47,561 nt of DNA from a phage, in the sequence record PZ324410.1, one strand, 5' to 3'. Positions within the stretch are counted from its first letter, which is position 1, and the number at the start of each line of letters is the position of its first letter. The notes under the pieces were generated by a model. That model did no database searches. It was given only the letters and a program-made list of their open reading frames with translations, and had not been told where the DNA came from. Below are positions 16,151-47,432 of the stretch, one piece after another. Position numbers and translations under genes: made by a program.

Positions 16151-16690
16151 CTACAGACGCATCGGCATAACAACAATCTTCGCAGTCTCGCCAGATGGCG
16201 CACTAAGGCAGCAAACTGCTGCATTTGTATTTCCATTCAGTTCAAATTTGACACCACAGAATTTAGGATTAAACAGCTTCGCCACTTTCTCAATATCAAC
16301 AAGGTAGCCAGTATTGAATCCTATTTCCTCTGCTGCTTTCGTTTCCTTTGGTATCACGCGGTCAATATCGGGGAATCGACCATCAATCTCTTCGCAGATA
16401 CCAGCGCCAACCATCGCGCCAGCTTCATCATGATACGTTGCAATTTTCGACCCGGTATCAATGATGGCGTGCTCATAGCGCTTTGTTGGTGACTTGCCAA
16501 TCTTGATAATCACATTTTCCGTCAGCTTATTATCATGGACTCCGCCAATGAATGCACGATGGCCGTCAGTTGACGCAATGCGACCATCAGTCATAAAGCA
16601 GATGCCGTTCAGGTAGTATCGCACATCATTACGAGCCTGAAATATCAATGCTGACTCAAGTAATAGTTTGCTGATTTTTAGTTTCATCAC
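16151..16690 (-). CDS. truncated DNA polymerase III beta sliding-clamp homolog
   Basis: translation contains DVRYYLNG, TDGHR, DGRFPDxxRVxPK, EIGFN and C-terminal VVMPMRL, matching landmarks of the C-terminal two thirds of bacterial DnaN; about half normal length. Confidence 0.6.
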   Translation of the reverse strand: MMKLKISKLLLESALIFQARNDVRYYLNGICFMTDGRIASTDGHRAFIGGVHDNKLTENVIIKIGKSPTKRYEHAIIDTGSKIATYHDEAGAMVGAGICEEIDGRFPDIDRVIPKETKAAEEIGFNTGYLVDIEKVAKLFNPKFCGVKFELNGNTNAAVCCLSAPSGETAKIVVMPMRL

Positions 16691-16860: not shown

Positions 16861-17222
16861 AGGACCAACCACTTAGCTGGAATGATGTATCGAACTTCCG
16901 ATTCTGTTAAACCTAAGTCCATGCATATACTATCCACACTTTTCTGTGCAGGGTAATTTCGAGAGAAGTAGTTCCCCATCCACTCTCTAAGGCCTGTAAA
17001 GCATGGTATGTCATCGAAATCTGAGATGTCAGATGCAGCATTGAATGCCTTACTACATATCAAGCATTGTTTATAGGAAAACGCATCTCTTTCCGATGAT
17101 ACTCCTGATGAATACTTATATTTATCTCCTTTGTGTATTTCTCTTCCACACTCGCAGCATTTATGGCTCTTGATAGCTTTTCTTTCTATTTGTCTGAAAG
17201 CAAGTGGCTGTTCACCCATCAC
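16857..17222 (-). CDS. zinc-ribbon protein
   Basis: CCECG and CLIC Cys pairs in 121-aa ORF. Confidence 0.5.
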   Translation of the reverse strand: MMGEQPLAFRQIERKAIKSHKCCECGREIHKGDKYKYSSGVSSERDAFSYKQCLICSKAFNAASDISDFDDIPCFTGLREWMGNYFSRNYPAQKSVDSICMDLGLTESEVRYIIPAKWLVL

Positions 17223-18028
17223 ATCTTCTCCAGAATTGCCATGACCTCGTGAATATCAGCAACAGGAATCTGGATAAATTCCTCATCCTCTGCCACCACA
17301 TGACCAGCAGGGAGAATCACATGGTCAGCTGGCTTCAATAACTCAATCAGGCGGTCTACTGGCTTAATCTTTTTCGACTTCAGCACCTTTGCTGTGACTT
17401 TGTCCTTGCCTTGCGCCCTCGCTTCTTCTACCGCCTCGTCGATAACTTTTACTGCATCATCTCCATGTTCGCGCGTTACCGCTACGGCATTTGCATAGCT
17501 GATTTGTCCTGCACTGATGCGCGCTTTTACTTCCGCTGGAACATCACCCAGCGACAGATGCATTTGCACGTCAGATACTGAGCGGCCTACCTTTTTGGCA
17601 ATTTCTTCATTCGTCCAGCCAAAACCCTTCAGTCGCGTGTAAGCCTTTGCGCGTTCAAACGGGTCGAGTTGCTTGCCCTGACTGGATGACACCATGAAGG
17701 CGATTTTGTCAGCCTCGTCGCCAGTGAAATCCTTGCACTCAATGCGAACGATTGGTGCTCCGCGCTCAATGGCACGCAATGCGCCGAGATAGCGGTGCTG
17801 ACCATCAAGAATGCGGATTCCCTTCTCATCTGGAATAACTGTTAATGCTGGCAGTGGCTGTCCTGATTCCCAGCACTGCGCGAAATATTCAACGTGTTGC
17901 TCATCTGCTTCACGGATGTTATATCCAGGCTCCAGATAGATTTGCTCCACTGGCACGAGATAGGTTTTGTTCACAGCGATTCCGTTGCGCGTTTCTTTGT
18001 CTGAATAGATTTTGCTTAGTGTTTTCAT
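17219..18028 (-). CDS. ParB-like nuclease domain protein
   Basis: LDGQHRY-type ParB N-terminal motif plus predicted HTH segment (EEIAKKVGRSVSDV). Confidence 0.6.
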   Translation of the reverse strand: MKTLSKIYSDKETRNGIAVNKTYLVPVEQIYLEPGYNIREADEQHVEYFAQCWESGQPLPALTVIPDEKGIRILDGQHRYLGALRAIERGAPIVRIECKDFTGDEADKIAFMVSSSQGKQLDPFERAKAYTRLKGFGWTNEEIAKKVGRSVSDVQMHLSLGDVPAEVKARISAGQISYANAVAVTREHGDDAVKVIDEAVEEARAQGKDKVTAKVLKSKKIKPVDRLIELLKPADHVILPAGHVVAEDEEFIQIPVADIHEVMAILEKM

Positions 18029-21537: not shown

Positions 21538-21614
21538 TGGTGGACACGGACGGATTTGAACCTTCAATCAGCCGATTATGAGTCGGTTGCTTTAACCAAT
21601 TAAGCTACGCGTCC
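21538..21614 (-). tRNA. tRNA with CAU anticodon (Met or Ile2), CCA encoded
   Basis: hand-folded on minus strand: 7-bp acceptor stem GGACGCG/CGTGTCC, D-arm GCTT-AATTGGTTA-AAGC, anticodon loop CUCAUAA, T-loop GGTTCAAATCC; one mismatch each in anticodon and T stems. Confidence 0.6.
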
Positions 21615-39497: not shown

Positions 39498-39889
39498 ACT
39501 CCTTTTGAGCTTAAGCTATCTTTATCACGCCTTCCGCTATACTCTTTGCTTACATCCTCGTACAAAACACCAAACGCCTTACAGAAATTAAATAGTGCGT
39601 CACCCGCAAACACTTCGCTTGGATGCCAGTTTCCGGATTTTCTTGCAACATCCCTGTACGATGCTGTCACTATACCTACATTGTTTTCATATTGTATTCG
39701 ACAAAACAGTACGTCATCATCAATGCAGATACCCATATTGCAGCGGAATACGGGCATTTTCCAGTAGTAAACCTCCATCAGGTGTTTCCCTGTCATCATG
39801 GATATTGCGTTATCATGTGCGCGCTCAGGATTTTCTGACTCAAAATAGTCATACAAACCCCTCATCACCAGATACTTGTAATTGATCAT
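39494..39889 (-). CDS. hypothetical protein
   Basis: 131-aa ORF, overlap-coupled to primase gene. Confidence 0.5.
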   Translation of the reverse strand: MINYKYLVMRGLYDYFESENPERAHDNAISMMTGKHLMEVYYWKMPVFRCNMGICIDDDVLFCRIQYENNVGIVTASYRDVARKSGNWHPSEVFAGDALFNFCKAFGVLYEDVSKEYSGRRDKDSLSSKGV

Positions 39890-42219
39890 ATCTCAACCTC
39901 ATCATTTGTTAATTTATAAATTATTACGTTGTGAGATGTTCTTTTTGCATTTTCATCAATGCAAATAATACCATCTGATAACAACTTCTCTACGCACCTC
40001 TCGACATCAGCACGTTTATACCCACCTTCTTTTGCCACCCCTCTAACCATTGCTGTTTTGGTCATTCCACGCTTCACATATTCTTTAACCATGGAGAAAA
40101 TACCTTCAATTCTTTCTTCCATAGCTTTAGACTTCGCTCCGGCGATACTGTCAGCACGCATCATCAGATCGCTTGTTGATTTAATTGTTAATGCTACCGC
40201 ATATCTCAAGTGCTCCATGGTTATGACACCAGTATCGCACGCAAGAATGCCAGCAATCTTTGCCACTTTTACAGCGCATCTGTTTATCAATGGATGATAA
40301 CCAGTACCGTTTTCTACATGCTTTCTTGCAACGGTTTTAATCCATGAGAAGAACTCCTTAGCGAGCTGAGAAACTTCAGGAGTAGCTTTTATAATCCGTC
40401 TTTCTTTTTGACTGATTATTGAGTCTGTCCAGTTTTTGTGCCCAGCGGTTCCGCCATTTATTATTGTTTTTATGGTCAGTTGCATATCCATTGGCAGATC
40501 GCAGTAGTTGACGTTTTCGTTTTCGTCAGCAATCTCCTGCAACTCCTGCATAATCATTGCGCGCCCCATAAGACCTGACTTAATGTTTTCTTCAGTAATA
40601 AGGCGCTTAAACTGATCATCAGTAGACACGCCAAAGATTGAAAAAAATGGATTCCTTATAGCTCCATCAATTCTGTTTATCACATCATCAAACTGACACT
40701 TAATGTCAACAGGGTCTGCCTGTATCTCATTTTCCTCAATAGCCATCAACAGCATAGCCTTTCTCTTTTCGAAAGACTTAATGAAATCCTCAGTAACCCG
40801 CTGGTCACAATAAAGAACTTCTGACGTGTAAGCCTCCATGATCGCACCAGCGGTTGCCATGTTGTACTCGCTTACTTTCTGACCAACAACACTACCAAGT
40901 TTTATCCCAATCTCATCCATGATGATATTAAACATCTGGTTAGCACAAAGACCTTCATATATCGCACGCTCTGAACGTATCTTACCGGCGACAGTCTTAC
41001 TCAATCCTGAGCAATCAATTATCTTTTGTAGCGCAGCAAGAACATCACCCTTACCTGAACCTGAACCAGCGATACCAACAGCAAAAAGGTTTGGCAAAGC
41101 CTTCCTGTTTGTAAGGTAAATATCAGATGACGCTCCGCAAATCATGGATGCGGCATGCAATGCGGCAAGTGCTGCAATGTTCTCTCGCTTCTCTGCACAG
41201 TTCTTATTAATCCACGCCGTAAGGCGACCAACAAATCCAGGCGGATAACGGACATCAACACTTTTGTACTCTACAGGGCATTCACCAACACCCATTGCCA
41301 TCTCTCGCTCGAAAGACTCAAGTTTCTCAATTTCCTCTGGAGTAGCCTCAAAAGTTACTTGCCTTACCCACCCTCCCTCTTGCGCGAGATAAACCAGCGT
41401 TGCTTCGGTTATCTTTTCGCTAACACCGTCCTTTCCAAAGGAATGCCATTTTGCGTCCATCTCTTCAGCTCTGTACTTGCTGAACTGCGATGACCACCTA
41501 TCCCAAAGCTCAAAACCATTGCCTTCTGTAGCTTCGTGGATAGCCATACCTACATGAAGCCATGGGTCATACTCATCACCATCTTTGATGTATTTGAGCA
41601 TATCCTCCATTTCGGAAATGCTGTAATTTTTACTATCAAGCGTGAAAACCTCGTCTTCCGTTCTCTCAGGACGCAACAAAAGCTCAATAAGTTCAGATGG
41701 ACATTCAGTTATCTCTGAAGGGGATCCATGCTCGGCCTCATAAAAGTTTCCAGTTTTATGAAAAGAACCACATCCAACAACAAAACCAGAGGATTTAAAG
41801 TCAATACCCTTAAACCTTCTGTCATGAGAGCGCAGCTTTATTCCTTCAGGAAGTTTGTAATAGATGTGGCGACCACCACCACCAGTCTTAACCGTAAAAC
41901 CAGCTTCGTCAGCAAGCTCTACGTCTAAGGCATCACAAAGCGATTCATATCCATCATTACCTCCGTTGCGTGGATCAATATCAACGACCAGATAACCATT
42001 CACAAGGACACCGAATGACTGCAGTTGACCATATTCAGCCATATTTTCAATCTGGTCATCAGCCCATATAACTCCAAGCTGCCAGTTACTCATAACCGGA
42101 TGCTTACCGGCAGCATTGCAATCTGGATCACCGCATGTGCAATTGCGGTCGATATCCATTGCATGGATTCCAATAATAGGGAAGCCACATTTGCGGTAAT
42201 CTTCATAACCAATCATCAT
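39886..42219 (-). CDS. DNA primase/helicase (Prim-Pol N-terminal domain plus P-loop NTPase)
   Basis: N-terminal Prim-Pol-like region with acidic DIDPRNGG motif; Walker A GIAGSGSGKG in central region. Confidence 0.7.
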   Translation of the reverse strand: MMIGYEDYRKCGFPIIGIHAMDIDRNCTCGDPDCNAAGKHPVMSNWQLGVIWADDQIENMAEYGQLQSFGVLVNGYLVVDIDPRNGGNDGYESLCDALDVELADEAGFTVKTGGGGRHIYYKLPEGIKLRSHDRRFKGIDFKSSGFVVGCGSFHKTGNFYEAEHGSPSEITECPSELIELLLRPERTEDEVFTLDSKNYSISEMEDMLKYIKDGDEYDPWLHVGMAIHEATEGNGFELWDRWSSQFSKYRAEEMDAKWHSFGKDGVSEKITEATLVYLAQEGGWVRQVTFEATPEEIEKLESFEREMAMGVGECPVEYKSVDVRYPPGFVGRLTAWINKNCAEKRENIAALAALHAASMICGASSDIYLTNRKALPNLFAVGIAGSGSGKGDVLAALQKIIDCSGLSKTVAGKIRSERAIYEGLCANQMFNIIMDEIGIKLGSVVGQKVSEYNMATAGAIMEAYTSEVLYCDQRVTEDFIKSFEKRKAMLLMAIEENEIQADPVDIKCQFDDVINRIDGAIRNPFFSIFGVSTDDQFKRLITEENIKSGLMGRAMIMQELQEIADENENVNYCDLPMDMQLTIKTIINGGTAGHKNWTDSIISQKERRIIKATPEVSQLAKEFFSWIKTVARKHVENGTGYHPLINRCAVKVAKIAGILACDTGVITMEHLRYAVALTIKSTSDLMMRADSIAGAKSKAMEERIEGIFSMVKEYVKRGMTKTAMVRGVAKEGGYKRADVERCVEKLLSDGIICIDENAKRTSHNVIIYKLTNDEVEI

Positions 42220-42653
42220 TTAACCCTCACCACATAAGCGGTATTACGTGCAACCATCTTGACACTGAATTTTTTTTGCAGCTTCTTACCAACCACGGAA
42301 AGCGCACTTCTCAACTGCTCAATACTCCTTATCAACGCAAAATCATCAAACACAAAATGCTTTCCCTTACCCAAACCAAGTCGGTAGACGAAGTTGCGAG
42401 CCTCTCCCTCCATTGTCGGTTTTTGCTCCCACACAGACGCGGCCCGTTTTTTTACCCTTTGCTCCTTGCATTTTATTTCACACGGGAGATGCGGCTTCCG
42501 CCACGCCATATACCTCTCAGCCTCCTCTATTGTTTTGAAAAACTTTGCATAGGTAAAATCATGCAGAAAACCACATCTACCGCTGGCATATACCTTTTTA
42601 CCATCAGCCCCAATTGCCTCAATGTAGTACCTTTTCATATCCCAACACCTCAC
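42216..42653 (-). CDS. hypothetical protein
   Basis: 145-aa basic ORF, coupled. Confidence 0.5.
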   Translation of the reverse strand: MRCWDMKRYYIEAIGADGKKVYASGRCGFLHDFTYAKFFKTIEEAERYMAWRKPHLPCEIKCKEQRVKKRAASVWEQKPTMEGEARNFVYRLGLGKGKHFVFDDFALIRSIEQLRSALSVVGKKLQKKFSVKMVARNTAYVVRVK

Positions 42654-42877
42654 TTAATCCGCTTAACCCACAAACCACCCTCCTTAGCTCGTGTTTTAAA
42701 CATCCATCCGTTCCGCACTGCAACCTTATGAAGGTTCACTCTGAATCCCCTTAATCCTTCATTAGCGGTAAACTCATCAAAGTTAAACTCCTTACGATCA
42801 CCAACCAACATATCACGCACGAAATCCCAGACCTCACCAATCGCACTGCCAAATCGGTATTCTTTACTCATCGTCAT
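42650..42877 (-). CDS. hypothetical protein
   Basis: 75-aa ORF, first gene after repeat-rich region. Confidence 0.5.
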   Translation of the reverse strand: MTMSKEYRFGSAIGEVWDFVRDMLVGDRKEFNFDEFTANEGLRGFRVNLHKVAVRNGWMFKTRAKEGGLWVKRIK

Positions 42878-43039
42878 TTATCCCCTTTTTGTTTGGTAAA
42901 AAAAGAATAAAGGTAAAAAGTAAGTTAGTCAAACACATTCACACGGGAATGATTTTTGCTCCGTGTGGGTGGTTGACAGCACACCACAACAGGAGTATAA
43001 CGCTTTCCAGAGGGGCGATTTTTCTTTTATTTTCAATAA

Positions 43040-43275
43040 CTTCGCTTCCAATGGTTAAGATTAGCTCGGGAAGCGGAAATACAGAAAAATCAATGGTTTA
43101 AGTTGTCGCTTCCCAACTTCCCGCTCCCAAGTAAGATTTTCGAAAAAAATTGAGAGTTTTAAAATTCAAAAATTATTTTTCTGGGAAGCGGGAGGCGACA
43201 CAAAAAACACTCAGAAGCGACTGAAAACAAAGAAAAAAATGCTTCCAGGAAATTCAAGGAAGCGCGGGAAGCCAA
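43040..43275. repeat. cluster of GGAAGCG / CGCTTCC iteron-like repeats
   Basis: copies at 43043, 43069, 43109, 43185, 43258 plus variants gcgggaa/gaagcga, both orientations, interleaved with A-tracts. Confidence 0.7.
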
Positions 43276-43304
43276 AAAAAAACTAAAAACCACTAAAAAA
43301 TAAC

Positions 43305-43440
43305 CAGCTAAATTGCTGGTTTTCGTGTTTCTGTAGCTTAAGGTATTAATATCTATAATAAATATAAAGAAGATCTCAATATACTTTATATAGTTAATAA
43401 ACAAAGTTTACTATTAGTAATGTATGTAACTATATATGTT
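43305..43440. other. hairpin plus about 110-bp strongly AT-rich tract (possible DNA unwinding element)
   Basis: ccagc taaatt gctgg hairpin then region dominated by ta/at repeats (tatataaat, tatatag). Confidence 0.4.
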
Positions 43441-43487
43441 AGCTAGCGTACACTAACATTTGGTCGTGTTTTTTCTTTCTCTGTATA

Positions 43488-43516
43488 TTGACGTAGAATC
43501 ACAACTGATATAGATT
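43488..43516 (+). promoter_or_regulatory. sigma70-like promoter TTGACG-N17-TAGATT
   Basis: hexamers with 17-nt spacer about 30 nt upstream of first plus-strand gene. Confidence 0.5.
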
Positions 43517-43546
43517 GAAATCATCGAAACAAGCGAGGGTGAAGAG

Positions 43547-43693
43547 ATGAAAATCAAAGACCGTGAAGAATTTGAAGATGCGCAGGCTATGGCACGCATT
43601 GCAGTTGAGCGCACAAACAACAGCATTCCTGCCGAAGTATTCTGGAACGCTGAAATGCAGGCCTTAATCTCTGCGTATGGGTTAAGCAAATGA
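43547..43693 (+). CDS. hypothetical small protein
   Basis: 48-aa hand-called ORF; GAGGGTGAAGAG RBS. Confidence 0.4.
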   Translation: MKIKDREEFEDAQAMARIAVERTNNSIPAEVFWNAEMQALISAYGLSK

Positions 43694-44074: not shown

Positions 44075-44122
44075 TGTGTTTTATTGAACTGCAAACGATT
44101 CAGCTATGTACATGGTGATGAT

Positions 44123-44326
44123 ATGAGTGAGTTGGTTATCAAGAGTTGCCCGTTTTGTGGTGGCGAGCCAAAGGTTAAACCATGGCGTTCATATGACCAT
44201 GAGAAACCATACTTCCTGATTCGATGCTCATGCGGGGCTAGAATGACAAACTTCAGGGAGTCTGCAGAGCAGGCAATTGCCGACTGGAATCGCAGGGTTA
44301 ATGTTGATTTATATGGCAAAAGTTAA
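44123..44326 (+). CDS. Lar-family restriction alleviation protein
   Basis: KSCPFCGG...CSCGAR...AEQAIADWNRR, the canonical Lar family pattern; ORF trimmed to ATG 44123. Confidence 0.7.
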   Translation: MSELVIKSCPFCGGEPKVKPWRSYDHEKPYFLIRCSCGARMTNFRESAEQAIADWNRRVNVDLYGKS

Positions 44327-45974: not shown

Positions 45975-46162
45975 ACAGAAAGTTTGGGAGGCAGCAAAAA
46001 ACGAGGGGGTGGATAGGTTTATATCAATGATTGCGAAGCACTTCCCCGGCGCAATAGATGTTGTCCATATTAAATCACCACACCGCGACGTATGGTGCAA
46101 AGCAAAATAAACTATTTACATGATACCGTATAAAGGGTATCATAATTCAACGAGGTGCAAAA

Positions 46163-46297
46163 ATGATTTGTCAAACATGTGGTAAGGAACTTCTTCCTGG
46201 ATGCCGTAAGGATAAGAAGTATTGCTCTCCTTATTGCAAGTTAAAAGCCACGAGGAGGAGAAATGCTGACAGAAAACAGAGAGTTCAAGTGGGATGA
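46163..46297 (+). CDS. small zinc-ribbon-like protein
   Basis: 44-aa hand-called ORF with CQTCG and CSPYC; overlaps HNH start by 35 nt. Confidence 0.25.
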   Translation: MICQTCGKELLPGCRKDKKYCSPYCKLKATRRRNADRKQRVQVG

Positions 46298-46766
46298 TGT
46301 ATTTGATTATAGCGATGGGGTGCTGTCGTGGAAAATTAAGCCTTGCAAGAACATGAAAAAATCATCTCCAGCTGGAACAATGAGAAACGATGGTTACTTG
46401 CAAGTAAGATTCATGAACAAGATACATTTGATTCATAGGATTGTATGGGAAATGTTTAACGGCGAGATACCTGATGGTATGCAGATAGACCACATCAACC
46501 ACGACAGGAGTGACAACAGAATTCAAAACTTAAGGATGGTTACTAAAATATCAAACGGTAGAAATTTGACCAAGAAAACAAATAACACTAGTGGTGTTAC
46601 TGGCGTCTCATGGTACAAAAGCCGGGGGAAGTGGAGGGTGCAAATAATGGTTGACAGAAAAAGTATACACATTGGGTATTTTAGTGATTTTGAATCAGCT
46701 GTTGCCGCAAGGATTTCTGCTAATGAAAGGTATGGGTTCCACAAAAATCACGGAGTGAATTGTTGA
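46263..46766 (+). CDS. HNH homing endonuclease (HNH + AP2-like)
   Basis: LIHRIVWEMFNGEIPDGMQIDHINHDRSDNRIQNLR and GVTGVSWYK motifs; AGGAGGAG RBS. Confidence 0.7.
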   Translation: MLTENREFKWDDVFDYSDGVLSWKIKPCKNMKKSSPAGTMRNDGYLQVRFMNKIHLIHRIVWEMFNGEIPDGMQIDHINHDRSDNRIQNLRMVTKISNGRNLTKKTNNTSGVTGVSWYKSRGKWRVQIMVDRKSIHIGYFSDFESAVAARISANERYGFHKNHGVNC

Positions 46767-47006: not shown

Positions 47007-47432
47007 TTGTCTATGGCTAAAAAGCTATTCAGTAAAGAAAATCAACCACAAAACAAACGCGGGAAAGACAAGCGCAAGTTGCTCGTTGAAGCCCTTGAGA
47101 GAAAGGGGTTTAGTGAGGAAAAACTCTATGACACCATCGTTGAGATGGCGATGATTGAACGTGACACGGCGATGATGAAGGAACTTATCGTTCGATTCAG
47201 CCCGCTACCTAAACCAGTTGCCCCGGTGTTTGAGGTGGACTTCCCTGATGACGGAACTCCGGTACAGAAGATTGATGCCGTTATTCGTGGCATAGCTGCT
47301 GGTGTTATACCTGTGGACATTGGAAAGACATTTGCCGAGGTTATCAGGACAGGACTGGATATTGCCGAAGTTACCGAACTCGCCGCACGCCTTGAGCGAC
47401 TGGAGAAATTACTGGAGCAGCAGAATGCGTGA
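47007..47432 (+). CDS. terS: terminase small subunit (putative)
   Basis: 141 aa, basic N-terminus, coiled-coil C-terminus, directly upstream of terL across the circular junction. Confidence 0.5.
   Translation: MSMAKKLFSKENQPQNKRGKDKRKLLVEALERKGFSEEKLYDTIVEMAMIERDTAMMKELIVRFSPLPKPVAPVFEVDFPDDGTPVQKIDAVIRGIAAGVIPVDIGKTFAEVIRTGLDIAEVTELAARLERLEKLLEQQNA

Follow-up and report, generated by a model that had tools for sequence, protein, structure and literature searches.

The origins of pSC101, R6K gamma and lambda bring together iterons, bends formed by A-tracts, a site for the integration host factor (IHF) and an adjacent AT-rich unwinding element. In the alpha protein of P4, a primase, a helicase of the SF3 type and a C-terminal winged-helix origin-binding domain reside in one and the same polypeptide, the octamer repeats occur in both orientations, and a second repeat cluster, crr, located 4.5 kb away, is also needed. 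The present report deals with a cluster of GGAAGCG-type repeats occurring in a 669-bp gap (42878-43546) of a phage DNA of 47,561 nt (PZ324410.1), the whole of which is referred to as the window, and with the primase-helicase encoded next to this gap. The staphylococcal pathogenicity islands (SaPIs) offer a further term of comparison: their origins contain 6-12 short iterons close to rep, half of them on each side of an AT-rich centre and at least two per side in opposed orientation, the Rep protein is a self-loading helicase which binds iterons of 5-6 nt through its C-terminal winged helix and is fused to a primase in SaPI5, and both the sequence and the specificity of the iterons differ between related elements (PMC9371898).

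Over the region 42880-43560, the window is 100% identical to Escherichia phage ECO95 1-6-1 (OR845258, an unannotated record), and the name ECO95 is used for it below. Part of the same region shows 83-91% identity to Shigella phage Sf11, Salmonella phage gmqsjt-1, the Escherichia phages ECO111 5-P and Sa179lw, and Klebsiella phage YX3973. The ECO95 relatives are siphophages of ~46-47 kb distributed among the genera Cedarrivervirus and Buchananvirus. Phages of this group replicate using a primase-helicase of the Prim-Pol/DUF3987 kind and, to our knowledge, possess no DNA polymerase gene of their own. The literature searched yielded neither a defined origin for Cedarrivervirus, Buchananvirus and the proposed Skate-like family, nor experimental evidence on origin function.

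As in the SaPIs, the ECO95 iterons lie near the primase gene and are opposed around an AT-rich centre, the proposed initiator is a helicase with a predicted C-terminal winged helix, and the repeat sequence varies from one relative to another. Unlike the SaPI Rep, an AAA+ helicase of 3'-5' polarity, the ECO95 protein contains a DUF3987 helicase, a family reported to consist of 5'-3' helicases with a small C-terminal domain (PMC11724360), and its primase is a Prim-Pol with PriCT-2. Moreover, the array is located upstream of the gene and divergent from it instead of just downstream, the repeats are longer (8-9 bp), there is an IHF site, a promoter-like site and a terminator enclose the array, and the element, known here from sequence and predicted structure, is carried by a virulent enterobacterial siphophage. 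With P4 alpha, which has a different primase, ECO95 has in common the predicted C-terminal winged helix of the primase-helicase and the repeats in both orientations, but there is no sequence similarity to P4 alpha and no second cluster was seen in the window with a GGGAAGCG scan allowing up to one mismatch. Iterons, A-tract bends, an IHF consensus and an adjacent AT tract also recall pSC101, R6K gamma and lambda; unlike the iteron plasmids and lambda, however, ECO95 lacks a DnaA box, its repeats are mainly inverted about a centre instead of being arranged in a one-way tandem, and its proposed initiator would be a helicase-primase and not a DnaB-recruiting Rep or O. In the primase, Pfam detected DUF3987 and neither an SF3 nor a Rep (AAA+) helicase domain. 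Since the helicase family differs, the DnaA box is absent and the array stands upstream of the gene, in divergent orientation, the resemblance to SaPI Rep and P4 alpha is one of functional analogy and not of family membership.

On balance, the segment 42973-43437 is probably a phage replication origin of the iteron type which, judging from sequence comparison and a predicted fold, would be recognized by the winged helix of the primase-helicase. This reading is favoured because the layout of the array is conserved while the repeat sequence changes between phages, because all module types of the ECO95 group retain a site matching the IHF consensus, because the adjacent AT tract is the least stable DNA of the genome, and because the winged-helix variants of the primase-helicase roughly follow the repeat type. 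The initial annotation had already seen in the cluster iterons placed beside an unwinding element, and this part of its proposal emerges from the comparison with relatives as the best supported one; its partition-type site and its candidate binder, a ParB-like protein, do not hold.

The repeat array and its flanking elements

The elements of the gap and the proposed initiator are distributed as follows, from left to right in the window.

39886-42219, minus strand: primase-helicase of 777 aa, proposed initiator (Pfam PF09250, PF08707 and PF13148; phrog_3022, DNA primase)
39910-40122, minus strand: predicted winged-helix domain (residues 700-770, H1-b1-H2-H3-b2-wing-b3), proposed iteron-recognition element
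42904-42932, minus strand: putative promoter-like site TTGACT-17-TATTCT of the leftward primase operon, from a consensus scan
42939-42967, no strand: palindrome CACACGG-N14-CCGTGTG, between two back-to-back promoter-like sites
42973-43001, plus strand: promoter-like site TTGACA-17-TATAAC reading into the array, from the comparison with relatives
43043-43050, minus strand: outer repeat copy TGGAAGCG, present in ECO95, UViG_007579 and L038, absent in Sf11
43068-43075, plus strand: core repeat S1, GGGAAGCG, kept in all A-type (GGGAAGC) modules according to alignments
43088-43100, plus strand: IHF consensus AATCAATGGTTTA (WATCARNNNNTTR), a perfect match in a conserved block between S1 and S2
43107-43114, minus strand: core repeat S2, GGGAAGCG, kept in all A-type modules according to alignments
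43117-43128, minus strand: composite variant copy GGGAGCGGGAAG, found by alignment in the ECO95 subtype only
43130-43180, no strand: central AT-rich core, 16% GC, between inward copies of opposite orientation
43183-43197, plus strand: core repeats S3a, GGGAAGCG, and S3b, GGGAGGCG, which share one base and are kept in all A-type modules
43213-43219, plus strand: variant copy AGAAGCG, from sequence reading (direct-repeat families D2 and D3)
43241-43246, minus strand: half copy GCTTCC (S4), kept in A-type modules according to alignments
43257-43273, plus strand: two outer copies, AGGAAGCG and GGGAAGCC, absent in Sf11
43273-43300, no strand: A-tracts spaced by ~10-11 bp, which predict intrinsically bent DNA
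43302-43331, no strand: hairpin AACCAGC-loop-GCTGGTT with T-runs on both strands, kept in all ECO95-group phages examined
43337-43437, no strand: AT-rich tract containing inverted repeats (I14 at 43362-43391)
43488-43516, plus strand: early promoter-like site TTGACG-17-TAGATT of the rightward small-gene operon, found by scan and conserved in relatives

The window contains 13 exact matches to GGAAGCG, compared with 4.4 (maximum 10) in shuffled sequences, and five of the 13 are concentrated in 43043-43264, at positions 43043(-), 43069(+), 43107(-), 43184(+) and 43258(+). With up to one mismatch to GGGAAGCG, 41 matches are found genome-wide for 24.8 expected, eight of which occur inside 43001-43273, a segment of 273 bp for which ~0.14 would be expected. 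The array is located in non-coding DNA, 170-400 bp from the start of the primase operon. Across the central core 43130-43180, whose 60-bp window ranks sixth among the least stable of the genome, the copies at 43107(-) and 43117-43128(-) oppose those at 43183(+) and 43190(+), i.e., at least two repeats per side around an AT-rich centre.

Only four matches to the IHF consensus occur on both strands of the whole window. Each of the ECO95-group genomes possesses one match inside its module (two in YX3973) out of the 4-9 found per complete genome, located 181-222 bp ahead of the hairpin; two module types have it on the plus strand and two on the minus strand. The chance of such in-module sites is ~0.05 cubed, taking into account three mutually unalignable module families. 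The modules of the Klebsiella 6991 group and of Yersinia P400 are devoid of the consensus. From its sequence, the site at 43088-43100 presumably binds IHF. At the place of the phased A-tracts, Sa179lw and YX3973 exhibit repeat copies arranged in tandem with an 11-bp period.

The hairpin proper (43302-43321) consists of a 7-bp stem with 4 G-C pairs and, owing to the T-run that extends beyond it on both strands, is terminator-like in both directions; it looks like a bidirectional intrinsic terminator closing the repeat module. The AT tract that follows, with a GC content of 17%, has the lowest duplex stability of any 100-bp segment in the window (z = 5.2, versus 3.1 for the next one) and remains 86-90% identical in the relatives, though the adjacent repeat module cannot be aligned; the hairpin and the early promoter are likewise kept (86-90% identity). 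Judging from its sequence, this tract may act as a DNA unwinding element, as an upstream control region for the early promoter, or as both. Most of what the initial annotation had described at this place is confirmed: at least five GGAAGCG copies in both orientations within about 240 bp, close variants at 43117-43128(-), 43213-43219(+) and 43241-43246(-) and interleaved A-tracts, then a hairpin, an AT-rich tract, which turns out to be extreme, and a promoter at 43488, which the scan recovers as a promoter-like site.

At the left edge of the module, a TTGAC(A/G)-17-TA... site occurs in all ECO95-group phages, and a comparable site exists in the 6991 group and in P400. In most ECO95-group phages its -10 element is devoid of the usual final T, and the scan does not call the 42973 site. 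A small G+C-rich hairpin followed by a T-run, at 43001-43017 (+), overlaps the -10 element and start of this site and includes a variant repeat copy. The palindrome at 42939-42967, a possible operator, is kept in UViG_007579 and L038 and not in the other module types.

Repeat families and winged-helix variants among related phages

The DNA similarity to the relatives extends from the hairpin rightwards only, the repeat part itself giving no match. When the same gap is read in each relative, a repeat cluster is found at the same place, with a different motif.

ECO95, Sf11 and three metagenomic relatives: GGGAAGC(C/G)
gmqsjt-1 and ECO111 5-P: GGGAAATAG
Sa179lw, and also L032: GGCAAATAG
YX3973: GGCATTTAG, also given as GGCATTTA(G/A)
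Klebsiella 6991 / VLCpiS13c group: GACTTTAGA
RSU-F4K5 type: GACTTTCA
Yersinia P400: TTTAGAGACG and TTAGGATT

At least six repeat types occupy this single position, to the right of the promoter-like site conserved at the left edge. A given motif is found 3-5 times within its own 330-bp module versus 0-10 times in the remaining 46 kb, a ~100-fold enrichment. The initial annotation took a loss of the repeats in syntenic relatives as evidence against an origin; GGAAGCG is indeed absent from most of them, yet the idea of an origin survives, because each relative has another repeat family there. The modules share a common layout: a promoter-like site reading inwards at the left edge, copies mostly on the minus strand to the left and on the plus strand to the right of a centre of 48-68 bp and, on the right side, A-tracts or tandem copies with an 11-bp period, to which the ECO95 group adds the hairpin, the AT tract and the early promoter. 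The centre is AT-rich in ECO95; in the relatives its 48-68 bp often contain G or C runs.

Within the GGGAAGC type, the modules of ECO95 and Sf11 are ~65% alike, the four core sites (43068, 43107, 43183-43197 and 43241) being kept and the outer copies being gained or lost between the two phages. The modules of Sa179lw and YX3973 can be aligned with each other, and AAATAG becomes ATTTAG in all copies, whatever their orientation and including those of the tandem run (the AAAT/ATTT difference is located at 30266-30638 in L013, at 21789-22161 in L015 and upstream of the primase in L032). Such a change of the repeats as a set, in all copies, therefore points to recognition of the motif rather than to chance repetition and, as far as these sequences tell, the repeats are selected as a set. 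A metagenome scan with a 22-mer from the conserved AT tract disclosed one further true relative, L038, of the ECO95 type, and seven matches devoid of the conserved upstream hairpin.

Homopolymer runs of G or C, 7-11 nt long and flanked by A-tracts, occur in the middle of the module in Sf11, gmqsjt-1, ECO111 5-P, the Klebsiella 6991 group and Yersinia P400 (L001 360-375; L004 4853-4910; L009 6898-6950; L007 7196-7245; L010 6930-6990). The run of the 6991 group reads GTACCCCCCC, twice, and the G-runs of P400 are followed by GGTACC, GGGTACC (3x). The length of the runs varies between near-identical phages, and ECO95 has none. In the Klebsiella phages of the RSU-F4K5 type (L008 6739-7299 (-); also L022, L023 and L026), an extra opposite-strand gene encoding 186 aa is inserted between the gp3-like gene and the variant repeat module (L008 7470-7660).

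The primase-helicase contains, according to Pfam, Prim-Pol, PriCT-2 and DUF3987 helicase domains and is completed by a small C-terminal domain. AlphaFold2 modelling of the last 137 residues predicts helices followed by a canonical winged helix at residues 700-770 (mean pLDDT 84.7), and almost all of the top 50 Foldseek matches in the PDB are winged-helix DNA-binding proteins (probability 0.9-1.0). The candidate initiator is, in this respect, predicted to end in a winged helix, the type of C-terminal domain suggested as an origin reader in related primases (PMC5862659). The sequence of the primase gave no match to solved structures and a search with its C-terminus gave insignificant matches only, and both word-indexed and exhaustive protein searches retrieved very few relatives of the C-terminal region.

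Among the 93 variable columns of the primase, 20 belong to the winged-helix domain, mostly to H3, the recognition helix, and to the wing, and this region is ~six times more variable than the helicase core, which is almost invariant. The winged helices fall into the groups ECO95/Sf11, gmqsjt-1/ECO111, Sa179lw/YX3973/L032, the 6991 group and P400, and the resulting types (A, B, C/D, E and F) broadly correspond to the repeat families, with a sharp island of divergence between B and C/D. Along the primase and the next gene, gmqsjt-1 (GGGAAATAG) shows 94-100% DNA identity to YX3973 or L032 (GGCAWWTAG), with the exception of nucleotides 2071-2340, corresponding to the winged-helix part, where the identity falls to 84/69/86%. 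Sa179lw and L032, which are 80-91% identical elsewhere, reach 92-99% exactly over the winged-helix part, and it is also there that Sa179lw comes closest to YX3973. Since the identity profile of this domain clashes with that of the rest of the gene, the winged helix groups by repeat type and not by gene history. A covariation involving the whole primase was rejected, the N-terminal and PriCT-2 parts not tracking the repeat type and the C-terminal domain alone doing so. From this distribution and the predicted fold, the winged helix would bind the repeats and, from the sequence of the locus, replication would start at the array.

All open reading frames (ORFs) of the window were compared with five complete relatives, in search of variants tracking the repeat type, and no gene turned out to be consistently shared only within each repeat-type pair. 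The variants of gp1 (75 aa) pair ECO95 with gmqsjt-1 and not with Sf11, those of gp3 (131 aa) do not follow the repeat type, and both proteins were discarded as binders. A 96-aa ORF at 2675-2965 (phrog_25285, function unknown) is common to ECO95 and Sf11 alone, with no corresponding situation in the other pairs.

According to the mechanism proposed for an origin at this place, the 777-aa primase-helicase would bind the 8-9-bp GGGAAGC(G) iterons through its winged helix (~700-770), and host IHF (43088-43100), together with the phased A-tracts, would bend the left arm of the array. Helicase rings would then load on either side of the 50-bp AT-rich core 43130-43180 and melt it, and the Prim-Pol domain would prime synthesis at the melted core. 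The AT tract 43337-43437, beyond the hairpin, would represent an additional or alternative unwinding region, or a control region of the early promoter.

Several observations weigh against an origin read by the winged helix. The winged helices of L032 (GGCAAATAG) and YX3973 (GGCATTTAG) are identical, their primases being 99% identical with 9 residues that differ, and none of these 9 differences tracks the repeat, so that primase residues were rejected as the cause of the type C versus type D repeats; nor was any protein found to track the AAAT/ATTT switch. The phages of the RSU-F4K5 type (GACTTTCA, E') similarly share the winged helix of the GACTTTAGA phages (E). In both C/D and E/E' repeats, the five or six bases at the 5' end (TGGCA, GACTTT) are unchanged, and the winged helix may therefore read only the 5' core of the repeat, by analogy with SaPI Rep and its 5-6-nt iterons; the concerted change of the remaining bases is, however, not accounted for by a recognition restricted to the core. 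Few independent events underlie the association between winged helix and repeats, the winged-helix matches in Foldseek have weak E-values (0.01-0.1), and the modules reassort freely relative to the flanking gp1 types, a behaviour that fits poorly with the need for a cognate protein. The segment 42878-43546 contains no match to the DnaA box (TTWTNCACA) expected in a DnaA-dependent plasmid origin, and the AT tract could be merely promoter-upstream DNA. The cumulative GC skew reaches its minimum at 42-43 kb, in agreement with an origin, but this minimum is confounded by the switch in coding strand and transcription direction with which it coincides.

A broader proposal, put forward more tentatively than the origin itself, is that the repeat module and the ~70-residue winged-helix patch make up a two-part, exchangeable replication-specificity system, with at least six specificities among co-circulating, near-identical virulent phages. 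These specificities might be swapped by short-patch recombination, perhaps driven by co-infection competition or by escape from origin-hijacking or origin-targeting elements, and a second determinant, either a protein or the shape of the DNA, might lie behind the AAAT-to-ATTT and AGA-to-CAA switches that occur without any change in the primase.

Competing explanations of the repeat module

The strongest rival, which is nonetheless rather unlikely, assigns to the locus a role in transcriptional control only. A phage regulator, possibly the winged helix of the primase acting as an autorepressor, would use the repeats as operators and set the balance among the primase operon, the 42973 site and the 43488 promoter by means of an IHF-shaped repression loop, whereas replication would start at another place or without a fixed site. 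Arrays of operators assisted by IHF have well-known examples, such as those of phage Mu. The region does lie between divergent promoter-like sites, a repeat copy overlaps the promoter-like site both in Sf11, where it is located inside the promoter spacer, and in ECO95 (43001-43008, at the 42973 site), and the conserved AT tract contains inverted repeats typical of operators. However, the regulators at hand do not track the repeat type, the Cro-like protein, rejected as a binder, being 91-98% identical everywhere regardless of the repeats and the ParB/KorB-like protein being similarly indifferent to them; no type-specific regulator gene is shared by the two members in all repeat-type pairs; and opposed repeats at an AT-rich centre, beside a primase-helicase with a covarying winged helix, fit an origin better. 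The control and origin roles are not mutually exclusive.

Distinctly less probable is a non-coding RNA of ~320 nt, or an R-loop primer transcript that would help to open or prime the origin, running from the 42973 site to the 43302 hairpin, with the inverted repeats as RNA stems. Because only complementarity would matter, its sequence could drift freely without a cognate protein, and the free reassortment of the modules relative to the phage genes is consistent with this view. In all ECO95-group phages the module is enclosed between a promoter-like site and a terminator-like hairpin, although the -10 element of the former is poor in most of them. The plus-strand fold is far more stable than that of shuffled sequences (z = -6.2), but any set of inverted repeats would be expected to show such stability. 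Between Sf11 and ECO95, the sequences flanking S2 and S3b change in a way that preserves their complementarity (GAAC/GTTC versus GACA/TGTC); RNAalifold, applied to five A-type modules, nevertheless gave a covariation term of +1.24 with most pairs invariant, hence no covariation support, and no Rfam match occurred at E <= 1. The G-runs of several relatives could stabilize an RNA-DNA hybrid, but they occur on different strands in different groups and are missing from ECO95. In addition, an RNA in which one 8-9-mer is reused for every stem would misfold, the copy number and the partners of the repeats differ between ECO95 and Sf11, and tandem copies with an 11-bp period and phased A-tracts are features of duplex DNA.

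In the cosB site of lambda, inverted sites flank an IHF site (R3-I1-R2), an arrangement which the ECO95 module resembles. A packaging site of the pac or cosB-like kind, bound by the small terminase with the help of IHF, is nevertheless very improbable. The Sf11 record (L012, MF158038) ends in this region with a 335-bp duplication (1-335 = 46120-46454), one edge of which falls inside gp1 and the other in the middle of the repeat module. A related phage is reported to have a terminally redundant and permuted genome without fixed termini (PMC11769527), which speaks against a packaging site, and because of this permutation the Sf11 duplication is probably an assembly overlap and not a true terminal repeat. 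Moreover, the site is located 3.6 kb from the terminase genes, and the putative small terminase (47007-47432) keeps 97-99% identity in gmqsjt-1 and YX3973, whose repeats are different, and only 43% in Sf11, whose repeats are the same; since its identity does not follow the repeat type, a packaging site was excluded.

Least credible of all is the partition centromere of the initial annotation, bound by the ParB-like protein (17219-18028) that it had speculatively named: this protein does contain ParB and KorB helix-turn-helix domains, and centromeres are often clusters of repeats, but it is excluded as a binder because the identical protein occurs with different repeats (100% identity in ECO111 5-P, whose GGGAAATAG repeats are entirely different, and 98% in Sa179lw, also with different repeats), no ParA-like partner or other Pfam match was seen among the neighbours of its gene, and the phages, which are described as lytic, have no known plasmid-prophage stage.

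Genomic setting and biological significance

To the left of the gap, a leftward operon comprises a 75-aa gene (42650-42877), a 145-aa gene and the 777-aa primase; to its right, small rightward early genes begin with a first start at 43547. The initial annotation had placed the region at the end of the primase-helicase operon, but this operon is encoded on the minus strand with its start at 42877, and the region is therefore located at its 5' end, in a divergent position. The 669-bp gap is plausibly, as first stated, the largest non-coding stretch of the window; the other gap inspected, of ~510 bp, contains a tRNA-Met (21538-21614, -), and in Sf11 the equivalent position is taken by a tRNA-Ser and a tRNA-Arg. 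Within 42216-42877 (-), phrog_28700 is matched both by the 75-aa product that opens the primase operon and by the 145-aa ORF in its C-terminal half (function unknown), so that the two ORFs are regarded as paralogues; the 145-aa gene is missing in Sf11 and Sa179lw.

Elsewhere in the window, an early-gene ORF (44084-44326, +) is Lar-like (restriction alleviation), the gene of an HNH endonuclease with an AP2 domain (46263-46766, +) precedes that of the putative small terminase by ~240 bp, and a short protein (16151-16690, -) shows weak similarity to the DNA polymerase III beta clamp. The window exceeds the matching GenBank record by 50 nt (47561 versus 47511 nt) and is devoid of a terminal self-overlap. 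The record OR850880, which is 13.5 kb long and bears the name "Salmonella phage S.Kent 1-2-1", with Salmonella Kentucky as its host, matches ECO95 1-6-1 at 100% identity across both the region and the primase, which reflects either one phage growing on two hosts or a sample mix-up.

Should the locus be a control region only, the finding would be an ordinary one. An origin of this kind would itself be of a kind already known, and its most interesting aspect would be the cassette-like diversity of the repeats with a matching patch in the primase. If the origin reading is true, it provides a concrete and testable origin site, together with a candidate initiator domain, for a group of enterobacterial siphophages, and the model of a self-loading helicase that combines a winged helix with iterons would extend from the SaPI and P4 satellites to virulent phages equipped with a different helicase family. 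Origin specificity would then represent a rapidly exchanged cassette among near-identical phages, with a bearing on co-infection, recombination and the design of phage cocktails.

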